Virus record (IMG/VR): IMGVR_UViG_3300048861_000044
Span: 1 to 39,903 of that record
Strand: one strand, 5' to 3'
Length of the DNA: 39,903 nucleotides
Source of the DNA: a virus
Lineage: Duplodnaviria; Caudoviricetes
Below the pieces are notes generated by a model. That model was not told where the DNA came from, searched no databases, and saw only the letters and a program-made list of their open reading frames with translations. The translations under genes and the position numbers were made by a program. This document shows positions 8,332-36,461 of this stretch, one piece after another. The number at the start of each line of letters is the position of its first letter. Within the stretch, counting starts at the first letter, position 1.

Positions 8332-9258
8332 ATGAACGCAATCAAGCAATTCTTCGCAGATCACAAGATCAGCGCCCATACTTTCGCCGCAGCCTGGGCA
8401 ATTGCAGACGTTCTCTGGTACACCAACACAGACTTTCATGCCTACATCTCAGGCTTGCTCGTAGCCCTCCCCGCTTGGCTCCATGCTCTGATCTTCGGCG
8501 TCGTCGTTCCGGTCCTGGTTTATCTCAAAGCGACCAAGAAGCCAGCCAAGGACCCGAATGAGCAGCAGTCAGCATCGAAGAACTTCGCAGCAGCCCTCCT
8601 ACTCTTCGCCCTGCTGCCACTGGTCACGCTCACCGGATGCAAGACAGCCGCAGTGTCCGGCCAGCCTACCGCGCCTAACCTGAATACCCCGTACCAGAAG
8701 GCCGCGCAGGCAATGTCCGCGTTCGCGTCTGACGTCCAGTCCGCGCAACAGATCGTCATCAACCTTCACAAGGGCGGCGTGATCGACAAGCCAACCGACA
8801 CAGCCATCCAGCTGCAGTTCAAGCAGGTTGCGGTCTACGGAAAGCAGATCGACGCGCTGATCCTCGCTCAAGCCTCTGCGGTCACCATTCAGGCTCGCGT
8901 GAACTCTGCTCTCTCCACACTGAGCCAGATCACGGAAGAGACCGGCAAGCTTGATCCCAACACTCTCCTGCAGGTCCAGGTATCCATCCAGGCCATCCAG
9001 CAGGTTCTCGGAACAGTTCTCGCAGCATTCAATCTCACAACGGCAGAGGTGACTTATGGACCCGATTACTATCGCAGCTTTAGCGGAGCAGGGCGTATTG
9101 CTCGCGTTGCAGATCTACAACCAGGTCAAGGCAGCACAGGCACCCGGCGTTACCTTGCGTCCCTTATCGGACCTGGTAGCGGAAGCGGACTCGAAGTTCG
9201 ATCAGATCTCAGCGACAGCGGATGCAGAGATAGCTTCTGCCTAAGGCTCGCGGCGTAG
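8332..9258 (+). CDS. Membrane protein: holin-like N-terminal TM segments, internal lipoprotein signal (LTG-C103), helical domain; candidate lysis protein
   Basis: Two hydrophobic segments, basic linker, KNFAAALLLFALLPLVTLTGC lipobox; GAGGTG RBS; position typical of lysis cassettes. Confidence 0.65.
   Translation: MNAIKQFFADHKISAHTFAAAWAIADVLWYTNTDFHAYISGLLVALPAWLHALIFGVVVPVLVYLKATKKPAKDPNEQQSASKNFAAALLLFALLPLVTLTGCKTAAVSGQPTAPNLNTPYQKAAQAMSAFASDVQSAQQIVINLHKGGVIDKPTDTAIQLQFKQVAVYGKQIDALILAQASAVTIQARVNSALSTLSQITEETGKLDPNTLLQVQVSIQAIQQVLGTVLAAFNLTTAEVTYGPDYYRSFSGAGRIARVADLQPGQGSTGTRRYLASLIGPGSGSGLEVRSDLSDSGCRDSFCLRLAA
9056..9244 (+). CDS. 62-aa protein embedded in another frame within the 8332-9258 gene
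   Basis: GAGGTG RBS 5 nt before ATG; amphipathic helical sequence MDPITIAALAEQGVLLALQIYNQVK. Confidence 0.7.
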   Translation: MDPITIAALAEQGVLLALQIYNQVKAAQAPGVTLRPLSDLVAEADSKFDQISATADAEIASA

Positions 9259-9384
9259 ATGACGCCGCTCAGCATCCTTGTTACATCTTCTGGAAGACAT
9301 GTCTTGGCTACTAAAACTCGTGGTGGTTCCACGGCACAAACCCCCGAAAGTGAGGGAACTAACCAAAGCGAAGGGGGGCCTGAA

Positions 9385-9657
9385 GTGGAGATAGATCGCG
9401 AGGTACTCATGCACATCATTGACTCAAGGGTGAGCGAGGGAATCCGGAAGTGGTACCAGGACTGGATGCTTCCGTTGCATAACGAGAACAAAGAAGAGCT
9501 CAAGGGTATGAGAGAGACTCTCGGGACGCTCGTAGACACCATGAACCAAGGCAAGGGCGGCATGACCGTAGCAAGGCACTCTGTGCGGGTTATCAATTGG
9601 GCTTTAGGTGCCGCCGGTGCAGCCGCGGTTCTAATCATAAGCCACTACTGGAAGTGA
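9385..9657 (+). CDS. Coiled-coil protein with C-terminal TM helix (holin/antiholin-like)
   Basis: GAAGGGGGG RBS before GTG 9385; WALGAAGAAAVLIISHYW C-terminal TM; start could be 9259. Confidence 0.6.
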   Translation: MEIDREVLMHIIDSRVSEGIRKWYQDWMLPLHNENKEELKGMRETLGTLVDTMNQGKGGMTVARHSVRVINWALGAAGAAAVLIISHYWK

Positions 9658-9665
9658 GGCCATCT

Positions 9666-10004
9666 ATGCAGCCAGCGGTAAGCGTGAAGACAATCCTGGT
9701 TGCATACAACGAGCAAGGCTGGCGCATCGGTGAAACTCACCATCGGGCGCGCATCTCGGATGAGACTGTCGAGAAGATCCGCGACCTTCGCGAGTATCGC
9801 TTCTGGACGTACAAAGAGATCGCGAGCCACTTCGAACTGAGCGTCAACACGATCAAGAAGATCTGCTCTTACACCTACCGGACCCAGAGGGCGAGCACGT
9901 GGAAACGGGTTGAGCGGACCCATAACTCCTTGACAGAGCAGTTACGCTCTAGCTACGCGAAGCGCGAGGCGAGCTTGCTCGTCACAGCGCACACGCAACG
10001 CTAG
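9666..10004 (+). CDS. HTH DNA-binding protein; candidate late-gene activator
   Basis: GETHHRARISDETVEKIRDLRE..WTYKEIASHFELSVNTIKKIC HTH; GAGG RBS; immediately upstream of terminase genes. Confidence 0.7.
   Translation: MQPAVSVKTILVAYNEQGWRIGETHHRARISDETVEKIRDLREYRFWTYKEIASHFELSVNTIKKICSYTYRTQRASTWKRVERTHNSLTEQLRSSYAKREASLLVTAHTQR
9917..9948 (+). promoter_or_regulatory. Late promoter motif 1: GACCCATAAC-N16-TACGCT
   Basis: Exact 10-mer shared with three intergenic copies, followed by a -10-like hexamer. Confidence 0.65.
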
Positions 10005-12103: not shown

Positions 12104-12559
12104 GTGCTTCGTGTGCTTCCAGTACGTGCTGCTGACCTGTTCTCCGCTCTCGGCGGGGAATCGCTGTTTGCTGCTTATGCTGAAGAGTGCTGTATCCCCG
12201 CGATCGGCAAGCCCGCACCCCAGACTCAGATGTACCAGGTCATGGAAGATTCAGGCCTGATGAAGTGCTTTGGGCTCTATGACGGGCCTCGGGTTGTCGG
12301 CTTCGCATCCGTACTGACCTCAGTCCTCCCTCACTACGGCAAGCTCGTAGCCACGGTTGAGAGCATCTTTGTCGATGCGGAGTACCGCGGTGGATTCGGG
12401 AGCGCTCAGCTTATTAGGGCTATCGAGGCCTTTGCTGGTGCCTCTGGATGCGTGGTCATCTTGTACAGCGCCCCAGCCGGTGGAGCTCTTGAGGATTCGT
12501 TTGGTGGACGCCCGGAGTATGAGCGCACCAATAGCGTCTTTTGCCGGAGGCTGCCATGA
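12104..12559 (+). CDS. GNAT-family acetyltransferase
   Basis: VVGFASV...VESIFVDAEYRGGFGSAQLIRAIEAFA...GC acetyl-CoA binding motif. Confidence 0.85.
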   Translation: MLRVLPVRAADLFSALGGESLFAAYAEECCIPAIGKPAPQTQMYQVMEDSGLMKCFGLYDGPRVVGFASVLTSVLPHYGKLVATVESIFVDAEYRGGFGSAQLIRAIEAFAGASGCVVILYSAPAGGALEDSFGGRPEYERTNSVFCRRLP

Positions 12560-12765
12560 CAGTAGAGCAAGCAAATCAGCAGGCACAGGAAAAGTATGGA
12601 ACGAAAGCTAATGCATGGTTGGTTCCTATTGCTGAGTTTGGCCATCGCGTCCAGTTTGAGGATGCCGACGGCCAGATGTGGGAAACAGGAGCCCGGTCTT
12701 TTGAAGAGGCTTTCGATATGCTTGCGCGCTTCGATTTTGCTGGACACCTTGCGAGGATGGCATGA
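12556..12765 (+). CDS. Hypothetical protein
   Basis: GGAGG RBS, ATGA overlaps at both ends. Confidence 0.65.
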   Translation: MTVEQANQQAQEKYGTKANAWLVPIAEFGHRVQFEDADGQMWETGARSFEEAFDMLARFDFAGHLARMA

Positions 12766-13295
12766 CAAGCCAAGAAGAAATGCCGGATGGCTTCCCTGAG
12801 TCGACTTATGCGACTTTGGCTAACGTCGAGGCCAGCGTGAATTCTTTAGCTCGGGACATCCTCTCTGTGCCTCCGTCCGGAGCTGCTGCCATGATGGCCG
12901 TTCGCATGGTTGAGGCGCTCGTAGAAGCATCGGAGCAGATTGATCTCTCTACTCATCATGTTCTGCATGGGGGGATGTATTCGCGCACGATCCATTTGGA
13001 TGGTGGGACCATAATCACCGGAGCACTGATCAAGATTCCTACACTCTTGGTGTTCAGCGGTAACGCCTATGTGTTGATTGGCACTGAGTGGGTAGACTTT
13101 GAAGGCTATGGCGTCATTCCCGCAAGCGCGGGACGCAAGCAGGCCTTTGTAGCGCGGACCCCAGTCGATCTCACGATGATCTTCCCAACGCAGGCCAAGA
13201 CAGTAGAGGAAGCCGAGCGCGAGTTTACCGATGATGCTGACAGACTGATGTCTCGCCGCAGCACTCGGGACGTAGTCGTGATCACAGGAGAATAG
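12762..13295 (+). CDS. Conserved phage protein with a predicted cupin-like beta-barrel
   Basis: HHVLHGGMYSRTIHL..GTIITGALIKIPTLLVFSG...ASAGRKQAF. Confidence 0.65.
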   Translation: MTSQEEMPDGFPESTYATLANVEASVNSLARDILSVPPSGAAAMMAVRMVEALVEASEQIDLSTHHVLHGGMYSRTIHLDGGTIITGALIKIPTLLVFSGNAYVLIGTEWVDFEGYGVIPASAGRKQAFVARTPVDLTMIFPTQAKTVEEAEREFTDDADRLMSRRSTRDVVVITGE

Positions 13296-27500: not shown

Positions 27501-30354
27501 ACTGAGCACACCGGAGGGAATGGCAAAAGAAGTTGAGAAGGCCACGCACAACGAAGCGCGGGCGCGGCTGATTGCATTTGAGCTCCTACACGCTTTCAAC
27601 ATGACGGAATCGGAACGTGTCCTGGTCAAAGCGGCGCGGGAGACGGCACGTCGGATGCTGGCCTCGGAGAAGTTCTCAGATATCGATCCTCGGGCGTATG
27701 CTGCGCGAGAGGCGAAGGCAGCACGACAGGCTCAGGTGGCCGCTGCGCGTGGGGATGTGGAGGCGGTAGGAAGGGCCAAGCGTGACCAGCTCCTGCAGAA
27801 CGCTCTAACCTCTGAGGCTCTTAAGGTGCGGGATGAGGCAGACAAGCACCTCCGCTATCTCAACAAGTTCGACAACCCATCCAAGGCGGTCACGAAGTCT
27901 ATCGGCGCCGATCACATGGACGCCATCAACGAACTGCTCGCCGGATATGGACTATCTCCCCGCGAACGATATAGCGAACGCAGTGAGCCGATGGAACAGT
28001 GGATCAATACGCAGTATGACCGGACCGGCGTCATGCCGGCAGTAGCGTCAACCCTGGTCGATAAGCTCGGCACCATGCACTGGAAGGATATGACCATCCA
28101 GCAGCTGCGCGATCTGCGCGATGCCGTCAAGTCGATCGACTACACCGGCCGGCGCCAGACCGAGGTGGATCTTGCCGGGCAGAAGGCGACGGTCGATGAG
28201 ATCGTTGGGCAGGTGCAGGACACGCTTCGGGATATGAGGCACACACCGGTCTCGGATCTTCGGTCGCATCTGGAGTATGCCAAGGGCCTGGACAAGATCA
28301 GTGCAAAGTTCCTCGACAAGAAGTCATGGATTCGCTCGGCAGATGCGGCACTCCTGAAAATGGAGCAGTTGTTCCAATGGATCGACGCCGGGGAGAAGGC
28401 AGGGACCAAAGAGGCGCCGATTGACGGTCCCATGCAGCGCATCTTCCACCTAGCCTCGAATGCCGAGGGCAAAGAGCGAGCGATGCGCGCAGATGCTGCC
28501 AAGGCCATGCGGGAGCTTGGGGAGAAGCTGAAGGGCGCCAAGATCGATCTGGCTGAATCGCTGGACGTACCCGAGCTGCCACGCGAGGATGGCGCGCAGT
28601 GGTACCGCGGCGACCTGCTTTCGATGGCCCTGAACATGGGCAACCAGAGCAACAAGGAAAAGCTCCTTGCCGGCTACGGCTGGTCAGAGATGGAGGCCGT
28701 CTCCGCCATCAACCGCCTACTCTCAAAGACGGAGATGGACTTCGTTCAGGGCGTTTGGGATCACATCGGCAGCTATGGGCGGGACATCGTAGAACTCGAA
28801 CGCAGACAGACGGGCGTGATGCCTCAGATGATTGAAGCGACTCCCCTGGTGACCAAGCACGGTGTCTACGCCGGCGGCTATTATCCGGTTGTCTATAACG
28901 ATGTTCTGGACTACAAGGCCGCAGAGAATCAGGCGCGCAACTCGGATCGACTCTTCGAGAACAACTTCGCACAGCCTTCGACAGCCAGCGGTCACACGGT
29001 GGCGCGCTCTGGCTACATCGGGCCTCTCTATCTTTCGCTGGGCGTCATCGCTCGGCACATCGACCAGGTGACCCATGACCTCTCATGGCGCGAGCCCATT
29101 ATCGACATGAACAAGGTTCTGAGCGATCAGCGCCTGCTGCGCGAGATTGACCAGGTTTACGGCCGCGAGTACAGCAAGCAGCTTCGTCCTTGGCTGCAGT
29201 CTATGGCCAACGATCGCGTATTCAACACCACCGGGGATTCGGCGTGGGAAGGCGCTGTTCGCAAGGTGCGCAGCAATTCCACGATGGTGGGGATCGGCTT
29301 CCGTATGTCGACCATGGCAGTTCATGGAACCTCTGCTCTATCGAACTCCATCGGCGAGGTTGGCTCGAAGTGGTTCGCTAAGGGCGTGCAGCAGTTCATG
29401 GGCCCGGATCGCATCCAGGCAACCAGGGACTTCATCTACGAGCGATCGCCGGAGATGGCGCACCGGATGGACGAGGCAGACCGCAACGTGCATGAGGCTG
29501 TCAGTGAGATCAACCGTCAGCAGTTGTCGGTTGCCAGCGTCTCCGGATCGATGAAGCTCTACAACGATATCCGTAAGTTCGCGTTCCGCGGCGTCGGCAT
29601 CCTCGACATGGCGTCAGCTATGCCCACGTGGATGGGTGCGTACCTGAAGGCCATGAGCAAAGAGGGCGAAGGCGGCTTGAACCTGAGCGAGGATGAGTCT
29701 GTCGAATACGCCAACCGTGCGGTGCGCAATGCTCACGGCGGCGGCGGGACCAAGGACCTATCGGCAGTCCAGCGGGACAAAGGCCTGATGTCGCTGGCCA
29801 CGATGTTCTATTCCTATTGGAACCACGTGTACAACCGTCAGCGCGACCTTGGCAAAGGCTGGGGCGCGGCGGTCACCGGACAGGCCGCGGTGCGCGACTT
29901 CCCGAAGCTACTGGCGCGCAGCTGGTTTTATATCGTCGTTCCACAGATCGCCCACACGCTGATCTCATCCCACCAGCCCGATGACAAATCGCTTGAAGAA
30001 TACTTGGCGCAGATCGGCGAGGGCATCGGGACTGGCTTCGTTTCCGGTATCCCTATCGTGCGCGACCTCGCCAATGCGGCGGTGCATGGAACAGACTACG
30101 CAATCTCTCCACTGGAGAACTCAGCCAATACAGCGCTGAAGACACTGGAGGATGCAAGCAAGATCGTTCATGGAGAGAAGCCCAGCGCACGCGCATTTCA
30201 GAACGCCGCGGAGACTGCCGGCTATGCCTTCGGCCTTCCCATGGCAGCGCCCGCGGCTTCGGCCAAGTTCCTGTGGGACGTCATCAATGGCGACGTACAT
30301 CCCAAAGACCTTTCGGATTGGTGGAAAGGCCTATTGAGCGGGAAGCTCAAGTAG
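24511..30354 (+). CDS. Large internal virion / DNA-ejection protein (about 1947 aa) with an HExxH zincin-like module
   Basis: AGAGGA RBS before ATG 24511; Gly/Ala hydrophobic segment; STFLHESSHYFL...HEQFA; GGYYPVVY motif; last gene before the tail fibre. Confidence 0.85.
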   Translation: MPTVYDDIAQQSTGAAPAPPRSVYDDIADEEVKRANQQAQQSLATTMDTNPDQAGEAQRISAKIGVGPDVALHQMDDARKQAALQDVQARDLASWNPMLARQLSDPNFAAISHDQVDNLSNTGALFTRMKDALAHPIDQLHSEANDITSQYGQGKADYELGMLGIKAKRGSATAEDWARIRELQEQRKGAQQPQTLTGRILGGTAAMAGNILPMAPRILAVGAAGAGIGAAATAITGPGALAGAGAGFATGAESEFGAQSYEMMAGNTYLDLLDKGVDENHAQWAAGLVGAANTALQLGAMRLAGKPVAGLMDRAFTQVMGESIAEEMTQPTVAKAVQSAVMNWGKNTALGATEMAMQTATSRMGEDWAKKMNAGEITSDIFSKDFAREFGKSWVDAAVTMGVINSFSGMAGFANDARRAQQATQTQAFFENLSSTAENAKVRPRNPAAYESFIASQAEGTGAENIFVDGKEFANVLNQSGLQVEQLDSIIPGMMDQVNEAAATGGDVVIPTSRFASTLAGTDLGKNLMPHMRLDPEAMSSAEAETFQQTQKEVFAKAQEEAQAQMANSVDFAKSAKVVESNIYDQLKATKTMPDDMARTNAQFVRDFVVTQAARSNMTPEAFFDKYRYNIIGAKDGVLEKAKRVLGQAAPVGNRGGFDPSSLTTMLGEKADMSTFLHESSHYFLSVYGEIAKDAEGSPEIKGDFDKLLKWFGVKDGETWNSMSLDEQRKFHEQFAYSYEQYLAEGKAPSVEAQGVFDRFTSWLKRVYKSIRDDTNTIYRQQHGQDLPILTGEVRDVMDRMLASDDQIKQAEAVRNMEPVFKSQELSGMNDAEWKTYSDMSQTATSAASDELGRASLREMQWMSTAKGRLLKAMQAQHEGIREDVRAEVRDELIKQDSVYSAQNFLKTGELWRDGELETSDIHKLDTEAARKLLPEGASNDLLRGMTKKDGLDPDVAASSLGFKDGLELMRAIAEAPPLKEAIDTATDQRMLERYGELSTPEGMAKEVEKATHNEARARLIAFELLHAFNMTESERVLVKAARETARRMLASEKFSDIDPRAYAAREAKAARQAQVAAARGDVEAVGRAKRDQLLQNALTSEALKVRDEADKHLRYLNKFDNPSKAVTKSIGADHMDAINELLAGYGLSPRERYSERSEPMEQWINTQYDRTGVMPAVASTLVDKLGTMHWKDMTIQQLRDLRDAVKSIDYTGRRQTEVDLAGQKATVDEIVGQVQDTLRDMRHTPVSDLRSHLEYAKGLDKISAKFLDKKSWIRSADAALLKMEQLFQWIDAGEKAGTKEAPIDGPMQRIFHLASNAEGKERAMRADAAKAMRELGEKLKGAKIDLAESLDVPELPREDGAQWYRGDLLSMALNMGNQSNKEKLLAGYGWSEMEAVSAINRLLSKTEMDFVQGVWDHIGSYGRDIVELERRQTGVMPQMIEATPLVTKHGVYAGGYYPVVYNDVLDYKAAENQARNSDRLFENNFAQPSTASGHTVARSGYIGPLYLSLGVIARHIDQVTHDLSWREPIIDMNKVLSDQRLLREIDQVYGREYSKQLRPWLQSMANDRVFNTTGDSAWEGAVRKVRSNSTMVGIGFRMSTMAVHGTSALSNSIGEVGSKWFAKGVQQFMGPDRIQATRDFIYERSPEMAHRMDEADRNVHEAVSEINRQQLSVASVSGSMKLYNDIRKFAFRGVGILDMASAMPTWMGAYLKAMSKEGEGGLNLSEDESVEYANRAVRNAHGGGGTKDLSAVQRDKGLMSLATMFYSYWNHVYNRQRDLGKGWGAAVTGQAAVRDFPKLLARSWFYIVVPQIAHTLISSHQPDDKSLEEYLAQIGEGIGTGFVSGIPIVRDLANAAVHGTDYAISPLENSANTALKTLEDASKIVHGEKPSARAFQNAAETAGYAFGLPMAAPAASAKFLWDVINGDVHPKDLSDWWKGLLSGKLK

Positions 30355-30384
30355 ACCCATAACCCCCGGTTTCATCGCTAGATT
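30354..30384 (+). promoter_or_regulatory. Late promoter motif 4: GACCCATAAC-N15-TAGATT, heading the tail-fibre/spike operon
   Basis: Overlaps the upstream TAG; followed by GGGAG SD and ATG 30406. Confidence 0.75.
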
Positions 30385-30405: not shown

Positions 30406-31164
30406 ATGGCGGTTAGCTCAACAAATAGGAAGGCTGGTCCGTTCCTCGGGAACGATGTAACTATCACCTTTCCGTTCGTGTTCAAAGTATTTCTGACGAG
30501 CGATCTTTTGGTCGAAGCTATCCAGGCAGGTGCCTTGGATTCTACGGTTCTCGTCCTCGACTCGGATTTTACCGCTGCTCTGAACCCTGATCAGGATACT
30601 GATCCCGGCGGGTCGATCACACTGACCGCTGGCCCATTGGCTACAGGGCACAGGCTGGTCATTACCTCGGACGTGCCCCAGCTCCAAGAAGTAAATCTGA
30701 CCAACCTTGGCGGATTCTTTCCGGATGTGCTCAATGGCGAATTCGACCGGCTGACGATCCTGATTCAACAACTCCAGGTAGAGCAGGCTAGAACGATCAA
30801 GTTCCCACTCACCGACCCCGCAGAAGTCGTTGAATTGCCTCCGGCAGAGCAGAGGGCAGGCAAGTTTCTTTACTTCGGATCTGACGGCACCATATCGCTA
30901 ATATCAGGCTCTCCGGTCGGAACGGCCCTGTTCTCAGGAGTTCTAGCGGGAACGAAAGATGGATCAAACAAGGTCTTTCAGATTACAAACAACGGTTCGC
31001 CTATTGGCGTTCAGCCTTTGCAGGCCACGGTATGGCTGAACTTCCCGCTTATCCCTGGTGATGCTAACGGCTACGACCTGGGCCCTGGTCCTGGTCAGGT
31101 AACGTTCAAGAATGCGCCCGTAGCGGAAGACTCGCTATTCGCATCAGGAGTGTTCTCAGCATGA
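30406..31164 (+). CDS. Tail fibre anchor/adaptor (T7 gp17-like N-terminal attachment domain plus a small C-terminal beta domain)
   Basis: GNDVTITFPFVFKVF...GGSITL...FFPDVLNGEFDRLTILIQQL...LPPAEQRAGKFLYF; only 252 aa. Confidence 0.85.
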   Translation: MAVSSTNRKAGPFLGNDVTITFPFVFKVFLTSDLLVEAIQAGALDSTVLVLDSDFTAALNPDQDTDPGGSITLTAGPLATGHRLVITSDVPQLQEVNLTNLGGFFPDVLNGEFDRLTILIQQLQVEQARTIKFPLTDPAEVVELPPAEQRAGKFLYFGSDGTISLISGSPVGTALFSGVLAGTKDGSNKVFQITNNGSPIGVQPLQATVWLNFPLIPGDANGYDLGPGPGQVTFKNAPVAEDSLFASGVFSA

Positions 31165-33551
31165 AGTCCTTCATCGCAGCAGTGCTGCTGTCGTTTTCTG
31201 TGCCCGTTGTGGCGCAGACCATAAACCCGAGCCAGGTAAGAGGTACAGCTATAGTCCAGACCCCACAGGGATCTCAGGCGATAACTCAGCCGGCGGGTAC
31301 ATCCTTCGATATCGACCACGCCAAGATCGCAAATCTGAACACGAATGGCTGGGTGGTGCCGGGGAATTACGGCGTCGTCTCTGGTGGATCTACGAACACC
31401 GTTACAGCTACCGGCAGTGGAAGCTCTCTAGTGCTATCGTCGGCATCCGACTTCACCCTAAACATGGGAGTAATGGTTCTCCATGGCGGAGGAGCCTGCG
31501 GCTCCGTTTTATCAAAAGGATGCGCGTCCCCTCCTACACCATCAGTGTCTACATCTGGGGCCTCCGGCTCGACAACCTATAGTTACAAATTGGCCTGTAT
31601 CGATGGTCTCGGAGGCGTGGGGGCGGCTGGATCAGCGGGGAGTACGACCAGCGGAAATGCGACTCTAGCCGGCGTGGTCAATGGAACGCAGGTCGGAGGT
31701 AACTACAACGTTGTCACGTGGACGGGAAACAGCGCGTGCACCGAGGTAGCCATCTATCGCAATAATGTCTTGATCGCCTCGGAATATTCGGCTCCGTCTG
31801 GGACGATGACTTACAACGATATCGGAATCGCTCCATGGGTAAACCGAGACATTCCTGCCGCGCCTCCCGCGTCATCTTTGAATGACAACTACATTGGCAA
31901 GATCACAGCGATAAATGGGACATCGGCGACCGTCAGCCCCAACCTAGGGGTGGCAGTTAGCTCGGCAAACCTGTATCACAGCGATACTCCTCTCATTCAA
32001 GCTGCGATCGCAGTGAGCTACTTCGTAAATCTTCCCCCTGGTCTTTACGTGGTGAACTATCCCATCAATTTCAGTAGGGCGGGAGCCAGTGTCCAGTTTG
32101 GTGTAACGGCGGCAATCGTGGGGCATGGGGCAATTCTTTGGACCGATACCGGAGAGATAGCCCTCGACGTTACAGGAGACCAAAATGTTGTCCTTAGCGG
32201 GTTCACGATGCGAGATGGACCTACGAATCCGAGTCACACAGGAATTTATTGTTCCCGAGATACGACGCTTCATGATGATCTCGCGCAAAACATTTTGACT
32301 GACCACCTCATCATCGTTAGCGGTGGTGTGCATAGTTACGGCGGTAGGGGTGGTGTCGCAATCTACAACCATGCCTGTGAAATCCAGCACAACTATGACG
32401 ATCAATTTCAAACGCAACGTTGGTCGGTGATGACCAGCACCAATATAGATCACGTATCCAGCCCGTTCGATGCCACCGATAATATCGGCGTAAGTTCTAT
32501 GTCTCAGGTTGAGTTCTACGGCGCCAATGGATCCGGGTGGACCTTTGGAGAGATCGATAATGCATATTCCATTCTTTATATAGGTGGCTACGGACTAGGA
32601 CCATCTACCGGGGGACATCCGTGGGGCTTTGAAGTAGACGCCGGCAATGCTGGCCGACTTCAGGTCGACCATATGAGGATCGAAGGCAAAGGCGGCCTGC
32701 TGGATATAGCTGCGGGGACAACGCTGCAGGCATCCTACCTGGACGCCGATGTATATCGCGCTGCTCCTTATCTAGGGATTCCGCAAGTTCGGCTCAACAG
32801 CGGAGCCAGTATAGCTAGCGCGGATATGATCCGATCGGATGACTATGGAGGATCGGGTGGATCTATCTCGGCTCTGGTCGATGGGACCAACTGCTCTGTT
32901 CAAAGCTCAATCCTTCGGCTAGGGATATTTGAAACGATCGGTAGCTGCGCCACTTCAGGAAATGGAAATACGATCAGCGGAACCACGGATTATGATCGAT
33001 CGCTTCCTCCGAATATTCAACTCACAGCCAGCGTCAGCCCAACATGGATGAAGCTGGGAACATGGATATCCAACTCTCCATCGATCGGTGCCACCTTAGG
33101 GTTGAAGTTTTATACGGGCGCAGGATTTACTGCGGGAGCCAACAACCAGGCAGTAGCGGAAGCCTTCATCAGAAACGCCAACGGCCTAGGCTCTGCTCCT
33201 AACCTTTCTGGCGCCAGCTTATTCAACTACGGGATATCGGCGCTCATCGGCCTCAAGGTTGTGGCTACCGGAGGAAGTACCAGCGTAACCAATCAGAGTT
33301 GGGACATTTACGTCAATGAGGCGGCCTTCACAAACGGCAACTACATCGTTGAGAAATCCCCCCATGATCAGTGGATCAGTATTGGTACACCGACTGCAGA
33401 TCCCGGTTCTGCCTCCTCCACGATCGTGGTTGGAACTGTAACGACGGTGCCCTCGGCAACAACTGCAACACCATCGGGAACCTGCACACTGAACGGATTC
33501 ATCCCCATGGTGATCGGGAATACGACCGTTCACGTGGCGACTTGTAACTAA
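31161..33551 (+). CDS. Tailspike-like right-handed beta-helix protein with a Sec signal peptide
   Basis: MKSFIAAVLLSFSVPVVA-Q signal; DTPLIQAAI..VNLPPGLYVV pectate-lyase-like cap motif; 10 Cys. Confidence 0.75.
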   Translation: MKSFIAAVLLSFSVPVVAQTINPSQVRGTAIVQTPQGSQAITQPAGTSFDIDHAKIANLNTNGWVVPGNYGVVSGGSTNTVTATGSGSSLVLSSASDFTLNMGVMVLHGGGACGSVLSKGCASPPTPSVSTSGASGSTTYSYKLACIDGLGGVGAAGSAGSTTSGNATLAGVVNGTQVGGNYNVVTWTGNSACTEVAIYRNNVLIASEYSAPSGTMTYNDIGIAPWVNRDIPAAPPASSLNDNYIGKITAINGTSATVSPNLGVAVSSANLYHSDTPLIQAAIAVSYFVNLPPGLYVVNYPINFSRAGASVQFGVTAAIVGHGAILWTDTGEIALDVTGDQNVVLSGFTMRDGPTNPSHTGIYCSRDTTLHDDLAQNILTDHLIIVSGGVHSYGGRGGVAIYNHACEIQHNYDDQFQTQRWSVMTSTNIDHVSSPFDATDNIGVSSMSQVEFYGANGSGWTFGEIDNAYSILYIGGYGLGPSTGGHPWGFEVDAGNAGRLQVDHMRIEGKGGLLDIAAGTTLQASYLDADVYRAAPYLGIPQVRLNSGASIASADMIRSDDYGGSGGSISALVDGTNCSVQSSILRLGIFETIGSCATSGNGNTISGTTDYDRSLPPNIQLTASVSPTWMKLGTWISNSPSIGATLGLKFYTGAGFTAGANNQAVAEAFIRNANGLGSAPNLSGASLFNYGISALIGLKVVATGGSTSVTNQSWDIYVNEAAFTNGNYIVEKSPHDQWISIGTPTADPGSASSTIVVGTVTTVPSATTATPSGTCTLNGFIPMVIGNTTVHVATCN

Positions 33552-33570
33552 AGACTTTTCAGGAGAGAGT

Positions 33571-35448
33571 ATGCGCAAGCTCTATCTATTTTCGATTCTG
33601 TTGGCGATGTCTACAGCCTGCTTCGCGCAGGGTGGATACATCCACGGCAACGGCGATCCCTCTAAGGCGAATCCAGTACCAAACTGCGGTGGCAGTCGCT
33701 TCTACATCGACGACTCGACGGGCCTTCTCTATGTTGCAGCGCAGGGATCGCCTTGCGTGTGGGCGCTAGCAGGCACCAGCAGTGGAACTTCAAGCGGCAC
33801 AAACCCGGCGATCCCTACCGGCGCGCTCGCTGACTATCGCTTCCTGGACGGGACTGGAACTACTGCTAAGGACTCCACCAGCAACGGCAACGATGCGACC
33901 CTCTGCTCTGTAAACTGCACAGCTCCTACTTGGGTCCCCAACGGCCTGAAGTTCGGCGATGAGTCCGCAGTAAACAAGACGGCCGGCGTGTCGCTTCCGG
34001 CCGCCCTCAATGCTTCTCAGACTTACCTCTTCGTTGCCTACCAGAACCCAATCCAGACAGCACTTTTCCCAGTCAACTATTCGACGCTGCTCACGAATTC
34101 AACCGCTGGCGCGCAGTTCAATATTCTCACTTCCTATGTGAACGCTGATGGTGCTTTCGAGGGTGGGTATGGAGTTTCAACCTTCGTCAATGCCACCACG
34201 AACAACTACGGAACCAATGGCTATTCTGGACTCCATGCAATCGCAATGGTCTGCGGCTCCGGATCAGGCACCGTAGATCACCTCTACATCGACGGCATCG
34301 AGGTCAATTACGGCAAAGTCCAAGGCACCTCTTGCGGCGCCCAGACTTCCGGCAATTTGTACATTGGTAATTCCGGCACTGCTCCTTGGCTGACGCAGGG
34401 CGAGTTGAACGGAACGATGTATCGCGCCATATTCTGGCCAACTAAGCTCACCTCGGCTCAAGTCAAGACTGCTTCTTTCGCTGCTCTCCAAGAGGCTAAT
34501 TCACGTGGCATTCAGCAGGGGCCTCAGATCCCTTGGAATATCGGAACCTTCTTGATTCACTTTATTGGTGACTCGATCACTGCGGGTTTTGGCGTCACCA
34601 ATCCGTGGCCGACTCTGGTTGGCGCAATCAATGGTTTGGTTGCAACTGTGAAGAATTGGGGAGTCAATTCTCTATCCGCTCGTCAGATCTCACTAAGCGA
34701 ACAGGACCGCGTTGCTCCTCAGTGCCGATCAATTTCGGGAATCTCTCCGGTCGCCATTGTGTTTGCGGGGACGAACGACTTCATCGGGCCGAATCCAACT
34801 CAGACTGGCGTGAAGGTTTGGGGCGCTTTGCAGTCGGAGATCTCGACTCTCAAGGTTGCCGGTTGCAAAGTCTTCGTCGCCACCATGCTCTCGCGTTCTG
34901 GAACCGGAACCAATAGCGTTTCGAACGACGTGAACAAGAATGCTCTCGACTTACAGATCGCTGGCAACTGGAAAGAGGCTGGTGCAACCGGCCTGATCGA
35001 CTTTGCGAACAATCCTCTGTTGGGCGCAGATGGAGCGAGCGCAAACACGTCCTACTTCCAGGTCGACGCGATTCACCCAAACCAGACCGGGGCAAACCTC
35101 CTCGCTTCCATCGCTACTAGCGTCCTCAACTATTACTATTCGCCCTACAGCCTGGGCAGCCCGCACGTCTATACGGCGAGCGCGACACTCACCAGCGCCG
35201 ATGCCGGAGTGGCGACTGGAACCCTCAGCGCTACTACAGCCTTTGTGATGCCAGACTGCTCGGGCCTCACCGGAGCGCCTTTCCTGATCAGCAACACTCA
35301 GTCAGCGCAGACCGTGACTATTGCAGGTGCAGCTTCTCAGCCAATCAACGGACTGGCTTCGGCCATCACCATACCCGCGAACTCAACCGTGCGCCTGACG
35401 GCGGTGGCGAACCCCTACACCACCTCAGGATGTCATTGGGCAATGTAG
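33571..35448 (+). CDS. LamG/concanavalin-like + SGNH(GDSL) hydrolase with a Sec signal peptide; candidate polysaccharide deacetylase receptor-binding protein
   Basis: MRKLYLFSILLAMSTACFA-Q signal; YRFLDGTGTTAKDS..NGND, LYIDG, LYIG LamG motifs; FIGDSIT, GTND, DAIHPN catalytic blocks. Confidence 0.85.
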   Translation: MRKLYLFSILLAMSTACFAQGGYIHGNGDPSKANPVPNCGGSRFYIDDSTGLLYVAAQGSPCVWALAGTSSGTSSGTNPAIPTGALADYRFLDGTGTTAKDSTSNGNDATLCSVNCTAPTWVPNGLKFGDESAVNKTAGVSLPAALNASQTYLFVAYQNPIQTALFPVNYSTLLTNSTAGAQFNILTSYVNADGAFEGGYGVSTFVNATTNNYGTNGYSGLHAIAMVCGSGSGTVDHLYIDGIEVNYGKVQGTSCGAQTSGNLYIGNSGTAPWLTQGELNGTMYRAIFWPTKLTSAQVKTASFAALQEANSRGIQQGPQIPWNIGTFLIHFIGDSITAGFGVTNPWPTLVGAINGLVATVKNWGVNSLSARQISLSEQDRVAPQCRSISGISPVAIVFAGTNDFIGPNPTQTGVKVWGALQSEISTLKVAGCKVFVATMLSRSGTGTNSVSNDVNKNALDLQIAGNWKEAGATGLIDFANNPLLGADGASANTSYFQVDAIHPNQTGANLLASIATSVLNYYYSPYSLGSPHVYTASATLTSADAGVATGTLSATTAFVMPDCSGLTGAPFLISNTQSAQTVTIAGAASQPINGLASAITIPANSTVRLTAVANPYTTSGCHWAM

Positions 35449-35491: not shown

Positions 35492-35521
35492 AAGAGGGGC
35501 CGAAAGGCTCCTCTTTTATTT
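35492..35521. terminator. Terminator between the convergent late operon and methyltransferase gene
   Basis: AAGAGGGGCC-GAAA-GGCTCCTCTT followed by TTATTT. Confidence 0.8.
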
Positions 35522-35523
35522 GC

Positions 35524-36342
35524 TCAATACTGCGAGTTGTTCGCGCCGGTCCAAAAGTTAGTCTCTAGCATCGCCCTTCCGGGATAGAGCGCGAACTCGC
35601 CGTTGTAGTCTCGAAGCTTTCGAATCTTGAAGAAAATGGTAAAAGCCGCGGTTGGAAATTTGTTGGCGAGTGGCCTGGCGATCGACTTCGGGAAGGGATA
35701 GAACTGCGACCCGGCGAAGCTCTCGAGATGGTATCCGGCAGGGAAGCAGGCTTCTACAAACTTCATCGTGTCTTCTTTTGAGAACGGCCGCACGTGTGCA
35801 GAGCAGACCTTATGCTGAGTGGGATGCTTGCCGAAGAGCATCAAGAGTCGATTGTGCAGGGAGCAGATGTTTGGAACTCCGAAGATAAAGTGTCCGCCAA
35901 CCTTGAGAGATCTGGTCACCTCGTTGAAGATCCAGAACACCTCTTTGGTGTGTTCTAAGATCTGATTCGCAATGAATAGATCGATGGACCGATCCGCGAA
36001 AGGCAGAGCGTCACGTTCGATGTTAGCGACATGGATCTCGTCAGCCTTTCCTCGTAAGGATTCGGCATAGCGCTGGCCAGCCTCTACAGCAATGATCCTA
36101 GCTTTCGGATGTATGCGTCTGAGGTTTTGTATGTCGGCTCCTACCCAGCCTGCCCCCAGATCAACCGCAGTTTCAACGCTTGGAATGCTGCGGAACAACG
36201 TCGCCATTACATGGCGGCCATAGGTCTCTTCGTGGTCGATTATCTTTCCAAGAATTCCATGAGCCCCGACACTTCCATACAGCGAATTGGCTGTCGTCAT
36301 TAGCGGAGCGCTAGCTGAAATATTCGTATACTGATTAGGCAT
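35524..36342 (-). CDS. Class I SAM-dependent methyltransferase (type 11/23-like), moron
   Basis: VDLGAG motif I, LPFADRSIDLFIANQILEH...LKVGG..IFGVPN; AGGAGGG RBS before ATG 36342; no DNA-MTase (D/N)PPY motif. Confidence 0.88.
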   Translation of the reverse strand: MPNQYTNISASAPLMTTANSLYGSVGAHGILGKIIDHEETYGRHVMATLFRSIPSVETAVDLGAGWVGADIQNLRRIHPKARIIAVEAGQRYAESLRGKADEIHVANIERDALPFADRSIDLFIANQILEHTKEVFWIFNEVTRSLKVGGHFIFGVPNICSLHNRLLMLFGKHPTQHKVCSAHVRPFSKEDTMKFVEACFPAGYHLESFAGSQFYPFPKSIARPLANKFPTAAFTIFFKIRKLRDYNGEFALYPGRAMLETNFWTGANNSQY

Positions 36343-36461
36343 GGGTGTCCCTCCTAGGACTTTGTGAGATAGGAGCCTGCAAGCTCTGATCTCAACCATG
36401 CATAACTCTACACCTGTTACCGTGGAATTAATATAGCTCTCCTACAACTTTTAGGTCGCCG

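Follow-up and report, generated by a model that had tools for sequence, protein, structure and literature searches.

How does a tailed phage come by receptor-binding proteins that look as if they were made for export? This question is raised by a three-gene operon (positions 30406 to 35448) in the Caudoviricetes record IMGVR_UViG_3300048861_000044, whose 39,903 nucleotides are called the window here. The operon encodes a short tail anchor (gene A), a tailspike-like β-helix protein (gene B) and a protein combining a lectin with an SGNH esterase (gene C), and both B and C start with a predicted Sec signal peptide. We consider it probable that A is a truncated anchor of the type described for phage KP34, that a docking peptide joins the spikes to it, and that these spikes would reach the periplasm by export, be oxidised there and attach when the cell lyses.

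The layout given in the initial annotation is correct: the three open reading frames (ORFs) lie at 30406-31164 (252 aa), 31161-33551 (796 aa) and 33571-35448 (625 aa), genes A and B overlap by an ATGA at 31161-31164, and the N-termini quoted for B and C are those of the translated frames. Translation of gene B is coupled to that of the anchor gene, and both the A-B and the B-C junction are matched without differences by contigs of a second study (run X1, possibly the source, set aside). A late promoter of the operon's own had been placed at 30354. No σ70 site is found there; what stands is a 12-bp motif, TAGACCCATAAC (30352..30363, + strand), a candidate phage late promoter element common to the operons starting near 12104 and 15701. 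A pattern search found exactly three copies of it in the window (12064, 15661 and 30352), all ahead of virion genes and against a chance mean of 0.08, and its 9-bp core occurs once more at 9918. The phage-specific motif (TAG)ACCCATAAC heads late operons at 9918, 12064, 15661 and 30352, and it is a candidate for an activator-dependent late promoter. Words similar to TAGACCCATAAC, recognised by eye, precede the anchors of five related loci (L001, L077, L085, L093 and L149). Because TAGACCCATAAC, presumably acting as a promoter, is common to the spike operon and two virion operons, we regard the spike operon as tied to the late programme. A terminator-like hairpin (35492..35515, +) closes the operon.

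The window represents a temperate podophage. The virion genes of this phage are BPP-1-like (portal, GP7 capsid, Bbp16, nozzle and three ejection proteins), and it also has genes for an integrase and a CI-like repressor. Its sequence was found in soil metagenome runs, with no RNA run among the runs listed. Since nearly all of the 62 genome loci with a relative of gene C are labelled as Acidobacteriaceae, and since C resembles gp342 of the cultured phage Tunturi 5 (39-40% identity), the host probably belongs to this family.

Signal peptides were called by heuristics for the n-, h- and c-regions, and some by eye. Among all window ORFs of at least 60 aa, only B and C pass these heuristics. Both show a basic n-region, a hydrophobic h-region and small residues at -3 and -1, as expected for substrates of Sec and signal peptidase I, they lack a lipobox, twin arginine or later transmembrane segment by the same heuristics, and AGGAG lies upstream of each start. 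The predicted signals comprise residues 1-18 of B, cut before Q19 (31161..31214, +), and residues 1-19 of C (33571..33627, +). Mature N-termini at Q19 and Q20 had been proposed: an unbiased site score agrees for B (A18|Q19), whereas C is scored G21|G22, though its homologues favor A|Q. Glutamine stands at +1 in B, and probably in C. The signals are conserved in the homologues surveyed, as 15 of 16 close homologues of B pass the filter and the 16th was recognised by eye. Many of the C homologues that fail it start mid-protein or have lipoprotein-like signals. A heuristic signal followed by glutamine occurs in 32 of 57 homologues of B and C, not counting the window's own two records, and 23 of 27 chosen signal-bearing genes have a ribosome-binding site at the start of the signal. 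In 400 kb of host genome, five of 15 signal-like proteins have a glutamine-led start compared with a background of 8.7%, indicating that the A|Q cut is a habit of the host. Type I glutaminyl cyclase (PF05096), the only type searched for, is encoded in 16 of 61 host-family genomes, a tally that includes the unpublished genomes G403 and G421, both without a match. The signal-bearing trait is hidden in places because gene callers start past the signal: database record P0038 begins B at M216, and gp111 of the cultured phage Tunturi 4 (L287:36434) is called about 120 codons late.

The 10 cysteines reported for each mature protein are present, at positions 113, 121, 146, 193, 364, 406, 578, 596, 775 and 795 of B and at 39, 62, 112, 116, 228, 255, 385, 432, 563 and 621 of C, which has a further one (17) within the signal. 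Their description as neighboring pairs is right in that consecutive cysteines are concerned, but "neighboring" here spans distances of 4-58 residues. In the alignments, several cysteine columns co-occur in identical rows: 328/334 (5 of 17 rows), 364/406 (15) and 452/455 (2) in the B family, and 112/116, 228/255 (9/33), 331/347 (10) and 338/342 (4) in the C family. An even number of mature cysteines was counted in 29 of 32 signal-bearing homologues versus 53 of 103 fused fibers, where the homologues are related rather than independent draws and one cut site (P0034) is misplaced. VKOR is encoded in 27 of 31 host-family genomes (including the unpublished G421 with and G403 without a match), while DsbB was not found in the same 31. 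From established knowledge, oxidation would then proceed by a DsbA-VKOR route. The proposal of exported, oxidatively folded spikes on an adaptor is, as far as sequences can tell, well supported in its first part by the conserved signals, the ribosome-binding sites, the paired gain and loss of cysteines and the host VKOR.

The second part, a receptor-binding slot, starts from gene A (30406..31164, +), which encodes a stand-alone tail anchor or adaptor without signal peptide or cysteine. It had been described as a tail-attachment domain without an enzyme, and Pfam indeed assigns no enzyme domain. Residues 1-140 (30406..30825, +) form a podophage fiber anchor domain (PHROG tail proteins, E 5e-24) that matches the N-terminus of the tailspike Dpo31 (PDB 28lx/8ck1, E 6e-25) and shares 46% identity with BPP-1 Bbp9 over residues 1-136. 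About 40 near-full-length relatives have 247-283 aa, and only one of 401 host-class genomes was matched by the gene A family, weakly. A virion-anchor domain of podophages at the N-terminus of a short non-enzymatic protein is the first hallmark of KP34-type systems. The C-terminal domain (residues about 172-252; 30919..31161, +) is the putative docking, or branching, site, with a tree that tracks the type of peptide encoded downstream.

To compare gene neighborhoods, we fetched 160 loci sharing the anchor domain of A (the best 80 of 243 and the best 80 of 370) and pooled them with earlier loci; cut anchors, loci without a downstream ORF and exact duplicates were left out, and anchors of 220-280 aa were counted as short. 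By the heuristics, a signal-peptide gene follows the anchor in 18 of 20 loci with short anchors (a 19th, L158, by eye) versus one of 104 with long fused fibers. In BPP-1, the gene order is bbp10 - bbp9 (the A homologue) - mtd, and B and C occupy the position of mtd behind A.

Directly behind the signal, B carries a conserved mature N-terminal segment of the QTINPxQ type (residues 19-62; 31215..31346, +), the putative docking peptide. B resembles the equivalent gene of locus L001 only at residues 1-52 and that of L077 only at 1-37, and its similarity to P0138, P0142 and P0145 is limited to the first 60-80 residues, the bodies being unrelated. A profile of the segment gave 10 matches in 1.84 billion proteins, P0138, P0142 and P0145 among them; three matches were internal and probably due to chance or repeats. 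According to Latka et al. (PMC6872550), a docking peptide is defined by its conservation at the N-terminus of otherwise swapped bodies, and such a peptide has been validated in phage (PMC13352976). The second hallmark of KP34-type systems, a conserved N-terminal peptide on a second receptor-binding protein with an interchangeable body, is thus found here behind a signal peptide. In P0039, a relative of B with 62% identity over 93% of the length, a tailspike head-binding domain (PDB 7eeq, E 8e-5) lies directly behind the signal, so that in at least one relative this slot serves for attachment. For the tree comparison, peptides were sorted by eye into four types (QTINPxQ, TPxY, LPKY and QxxGP) and trees of 20 rows were built, with L088 and L089 left out. 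The peptide type changes four times, the minimum, on the tree of the A C-terminal domain versus five times on the anchor tree, and in L086 and L093, which belong to separate anchor lineages, C-terminal domain and peptide type have changed together. The synteny with mtd, the conserved segment and the head-binding domain of P0039 all support placing B and C in a receptor-binding slot.

Gene B (31161..33551, +) encodes β-sandwich parts, a capped right-handed β-helix (residues about 276-610; 31986..32990, +) and a C-terminal sandwich, according to a model with a mean pLDDT of 75. The helix was assigned from the secondary structure of the model and from fold matches, and Foldseek lists WceF at the top, together with phage tailspikes (E 9e-9 to 1e-5). 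The capped parallel β-helix is that of tailspike depolymerases, and in the model this part is likely a polysaccharide depolymerase or binding domain; D336, E407, E508, D560 and D561 are invariant acidic residues of the family. Such tailspikes usually fold in the cytoplasm without a signal, from which B and its close homologues depart by carrying a predicted one. Sequence searches of Pfam, PHROG, the PDB and GenBank phages gave no match to B, and scans of viral contigs with B alone, C alone or the B alignment returned no loci.

Gene C (33571..35448, +) was modeled with a pLDDT of 85. Its mature part begins with a conserved two-cysteine module (residues 20-68; 33628..33774, +), a candidate second docking module: this 49-residue start recurs in the genes at the second position in L001 and L077, and in P0006, P0035 and P0036, the latter two of which align with just 11-12% of C. 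It is followed by a LamG/concanavalin-like lectin domain (residues 82-304; 33814..34482, +; Z 18.8, rmsd 2.5, 189 aligned, to domain 4 of AbnA) and an SGNH hydrolase (residues 325-523; 34543..35139, +; PF13472 with 43.4 bits at a cut-off of 32.9, Z 18.6). Its catalytic set of the SGNH/GDSL blocks, S335, G364, N402, D499 and H502, is invariant or nearly so in 33 sequences, and the fold neighbors are carbohydrate esterases. C would combine a lectin with a likely O-deacetylase. The tip (residues 528-625; 35152..35445, +) is a β-sandwich of a kind known from phage proteins, with an Atlas feature score of 0.95 to viral clusters and a TM of about 0.8. Two homologues differ in architecture: that of L077 (9893-11746) is split into ORFs of 417 and 192 aa by a frameshift or an assembly error, and Tunturi 5 gp342 (L280:18282-21842) has the lectin and SGNH module in two tandem copies.

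Based on these observations, we propose the following sequence of events. The short anchor A is likely retained in the cytoplasm and incorporated into the particle. B and C would leave the cytoplasm through Sec, lose their signals so that glutamine becomes the N-terminus, and form their disulfides in the periplasm. Lysis would then mix the compartments, and the spikes would dock on the anchor via their newly exposed N-terminal segments. B would be the primary spike, with a β-helix that likely binds or cuts host polysaccharide, and C a second one, attached to A or B via its own two-cysteine module. What the sequences show directly is the order of the genes, the upstream motif in common with virion operons, the domains encoded and the patterns of conservation; export, cleavage, disulfides, trimers, docking, timing and substrates are all inferred. 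Late docking is feasible, since in P22 the tailspike is the last part added, and in vitro it attaches to heads without tails (10.1101/2021.09.20.461090).

Signal-bearing tail proteins are also encoded by cultured phages. From the five Tunturi isolates (PMC11924767), we covered the annotation of all of Tunturi 1, 3 and 4 and of 32 kb of Tunturi 5, and called signals by eye on translated selected genes of the virion region (GenBank PP887698, PP885687 and PP885688 for Tunturi 1, 4 and 5). Plaque-forming Tunturi 1 has signals on gp12, 13, 14, 16 and 17, including all four of its large fiber- or spike-like genes (gp12, 13, 14 and 17). Tunturi 5 has them on gp337-342, of which gp339 and gp340 are small, and Tunturi 4 on gp113, gp114 and gp111, the last in a stretch upstream of the called gene and in frame with it. 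A 146-aa base lies next to these Tunturi 4 genes, and this phage also has signal-less tail-tip genes. Because Tunturi 1, 4 and 5 carry signals whereas the fibers of Tunturi 3 do not, the trait is common but optional in these phages. The available part of PMC11924767 does not remark on the signals, contains no occurrence of "tail fiber" and reports no mass spectrometry. A hidden Markov model of the Ig-like N-terminal domain found in signal-bearing homologues matched only Tunturi 3 gp14, weakly (E 2e-4), which we treat as a lead only. Relatives of C also occur in viral contigs L009-L013; L012 encodes a 209-aa fiber base with four signal-bearing proteins behind it, and L011 has one such protein behind its tail-tip gene.

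Several observations weigh against the proposed route. The signals were called by heuristics and not by SignalP, residues 1-61 of B are unmodelled (pLDDT <50), and whole-chain TM-scores of B are low (0.2-0.4). The C-terminal domain of A has no PHROG or PDB sequence match and Atlas scores below 0.9, which leaves it without an assigned family, including the T4 gp10-like branching domains characteristic of KP34-type anchors. Host lineage confounds the correlation between short anchors and signals, near-duplicates (L079/L080 and L085/L088) are among the loci counted, and the match between C-domain and peptide trees, with labels assigned by eye, could arise from physical linkage alone. The N-terminal module of C is also found in cellular-looking proteins with lipoprotein-like signals (P0028, P0031 and P0034). 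Tunturi 3, which has signal-less fibers, uses the same host strain as Tunturi 1, and export is therefore not required on this host. The literature searched contains no virion proteomics for the window phage or the Tunturi phages. Finally, no endolysin was recognised among 53 window stretches scanned, and the lysis step therefore stays unexplained. A window ORF at 8332-9258 resembles a holin-like part fused to a lipoprotein (region 8332-9657), and a lysozyme-like gene is present in relative L008.

The alternative that survives best, although we think it unlikely, is that B and C are exported late as free enzymes and never join the particle: they would remove or deacetylate capsule or biofilm so that progeny can leave and spread, or put receptors of the dying cell out of action, with host binding left to A alone or to another protein. 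The closest fold match of B is a precedent, as WceF is an exported host enzyme, a tailspike-like trimer that retains a P22-like head-binding domain and acts free, off the virion (PMC7949094). Halos from unincorporated RBP2 (Latka 2026, PMC13352976) fit as well, and so does L089 (7001-8029), a locus with a short anchor and no spike gene behind it. There, the ORF after the anchor corresponds to the one behind the spike in L086, suggesting that L089 has lost its spike. The initial annotation saw no other receptor-binding candidate in the genome, a statement that overlooks the ORF at 12762-13295 (177 aa) between an acetyltransferase and the portal gene, which matches the PHROG "short tail fiber protein" (E 1.9e-10). 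Its product looks cupin-like, and the PHROG name may be wrong. Nothing, however, would favor retention of 40-60 N-terminal residues in free enzymes whose bodies are swapped, nor of a segment type that matches the C-terminal domain of A. Moreover, the tip of A comprises only about 80 residues and is conserved, unlike a variable receptor-binding tip, and in Tunturi 1 signals are present on every large fiber- or spike-like gene. On this evidence we prefer docking of the exported spikes on A.

Export could also be a sideline, with a cytoplasmic form of the spikes, made from an internal start or left uncleaved, assembling on A. In-frame GTG codons at V14 and V17 of B, just ahead of Q19, would allow this, and P0138 and P0142 carry a docking-type peptide but no signal in the database calls, starting M-A-Q, which also counts against the exported route. 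We nevertheless find such a bypass improbable: only seven of the 27 signal-bearing genes have an alternative start codon within the last six codons of the signal, none of the seven has a ribosome-binding site, and the paired cysteines imply oxidation. A dual start of the signal-bearing genes was rejected as unsupported for the same lack of ribosome-binding sites. Least credible of all is a role of B and C in lysogenic conversion, in which the prophage would express them to alter the host surface or keep out superinfecting phages. In its favor, the phage is temperate, both genes are close to the integrase end next to a methyltransferase gene on the opposite strand, and their GC content at third codon positions (0.56-0.63) is below that of the core virion genes (0.68-0.75). 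Against it, gene A is equally low (0.57), B is coupled to it behind the virion-operon motif, and the + strand scan found no separate σ70 site for B and C. The methyltransferase (Class I, SAM-dependent; 35524-36399, - strand) is placed like a moron, with the spike operon on one side and the integrase on the other.

Relatives of C also led to a phage-like cluster in Acidobacteriaceae chromosomes (L014-L075, for example L034:1448-19058, and L260-L279), often beside purE/purK. It contains genes for a capsid-like protein, a head-tail adaptor, a tube-like protein and a 776-aa tip-like protein, and looks like a domesticated element resembling gene-transfer agents; no description of it was found in the literature searched. 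The capsid-like gene is present in 68 of 101 family genomes (including the unpublished G403), nearly always once. One cluster lineage contains a 1530-aa signal-bearing fiber ending in the module of C, a terminase, a HipA-like pair and a portal, and 37 of 42 full-length cluster fibers are signal-like. Such a fiber as a fixed part of the cluster was rejected, since none of 20 further regions matched (one of them incomplete).

A wider reading, which we offer tentatively and hold to be rather less likely than not to be right, would extend the scheme beyond this locus. Many phages of Acidobacteriota, of all three tail types, and the domesticated transfer-agent-like element might finish their virions outside the cytoplasm. 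Signal cleavage would unmask a glutamine-led docking peptide and thereby license attachment, particles would leave the cytoplasm non-infective and take up spikes from a periplasmic pool at lysis, and host range could possibly be set in trans by whichever compatible spikes that pool holds.

Assembly of tailed-phage particles is regarded as a matter of the cytoplasm alone, and a receptor-binding module routed through Sec and the periplasm would add a second assembly compartment. If so, the spikes would gain stabilisation by disulfides, infectivity would depend on Sec, signal peptidase and VKOR of the host, and such genes would be prone to being misread as secreted morons or shortened by gene callers, as with P0038 and Tunturi 4 gp111. 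The trait is directly testable, because cultured phage-host pairs exist both with it (Tunturi 1, 4 and 5) and without it (Tunturi 3, on the host strain of Tunturi 1).

How does this compare with known systems? Exported virion spikes of tailed phages were not described in the literature searched, in which signal peptides on tail proteins were queried directly and few subscription papers, and main texts only, were covered; the available parts of PMC5900883 and PMC5723332 likewise hold nothing on signal-bearing tail proteins. The closest relatives are the KP34-type systems (KP34gp49/gp57, KP32 group D and JD001; PMC6872550, PMC13352976), which share the short non-enzymatic anchor and have an enzymatic spike as a protein of its own, conserved in its N-terminal peptide and interchangeable in its body. 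Their spikes are cytoplasmic, to judge from the accessible text (the word "signal" does not occur in PMC13352976 and occurs once in PMC6872550), whereas the peptide of the window phage sits behind a predicted cleavable signal and its spikes are cysteine-paired. Pantoea stewartii WceF (PMC7949094) is likewise an exported tailspike-like β-helix, but it is a chromosomal biofilm enzyme that is exported folded by Tat, while B and C belong to a phage late operon and have Sec-type signals. Phages of Porphyromonas gingivalis encode Q-rule proteins with Sec signals cut before glutamine (PMC10367356); the five genes concerned have no known function, are suggested to change the outer membrane of the host and, in the part available, are not described as tail spikes. 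BPP-1 resembles the window phage in gene order, in the homologous anchor and in a receptor-binding protein separate from the fiber, but Bbp9 has 508 aa and Mtd is diversified by a retroelement and lacks a signal peptide. The tailspikes of P22, Pam1 and Dpo31 share the β-helix fold and the late addition to finished heads, the anchor of A resembles the N-terminus of Dpo31 and P0039 has the head-binding domain of Pam1; in these spikes, however, anchor and enzyme are fused and there is no signal peptide. The receptor-binding virion protein pIII of filamentous phages has a Sec signal and periplasmic disulfides, and is membrane-anchored and added during non-lytic extrusion. It is not a protein of tailed phages, and B and C have no membrane anchor. 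Tunturi 1, 4 and 5 share signal-bearing, cysteine-rich fiber or spike genes in phages of Acidobacteriota, with gp342 homologous to C, and differ from the window phage in morphotype or anchor. Taken together, the parts of this module are of known kinds, and what the literature searched does not describe is their proposed routing through export; to this, the locus adds the logic of anchor plus peptide and a connection to cultured test systems.

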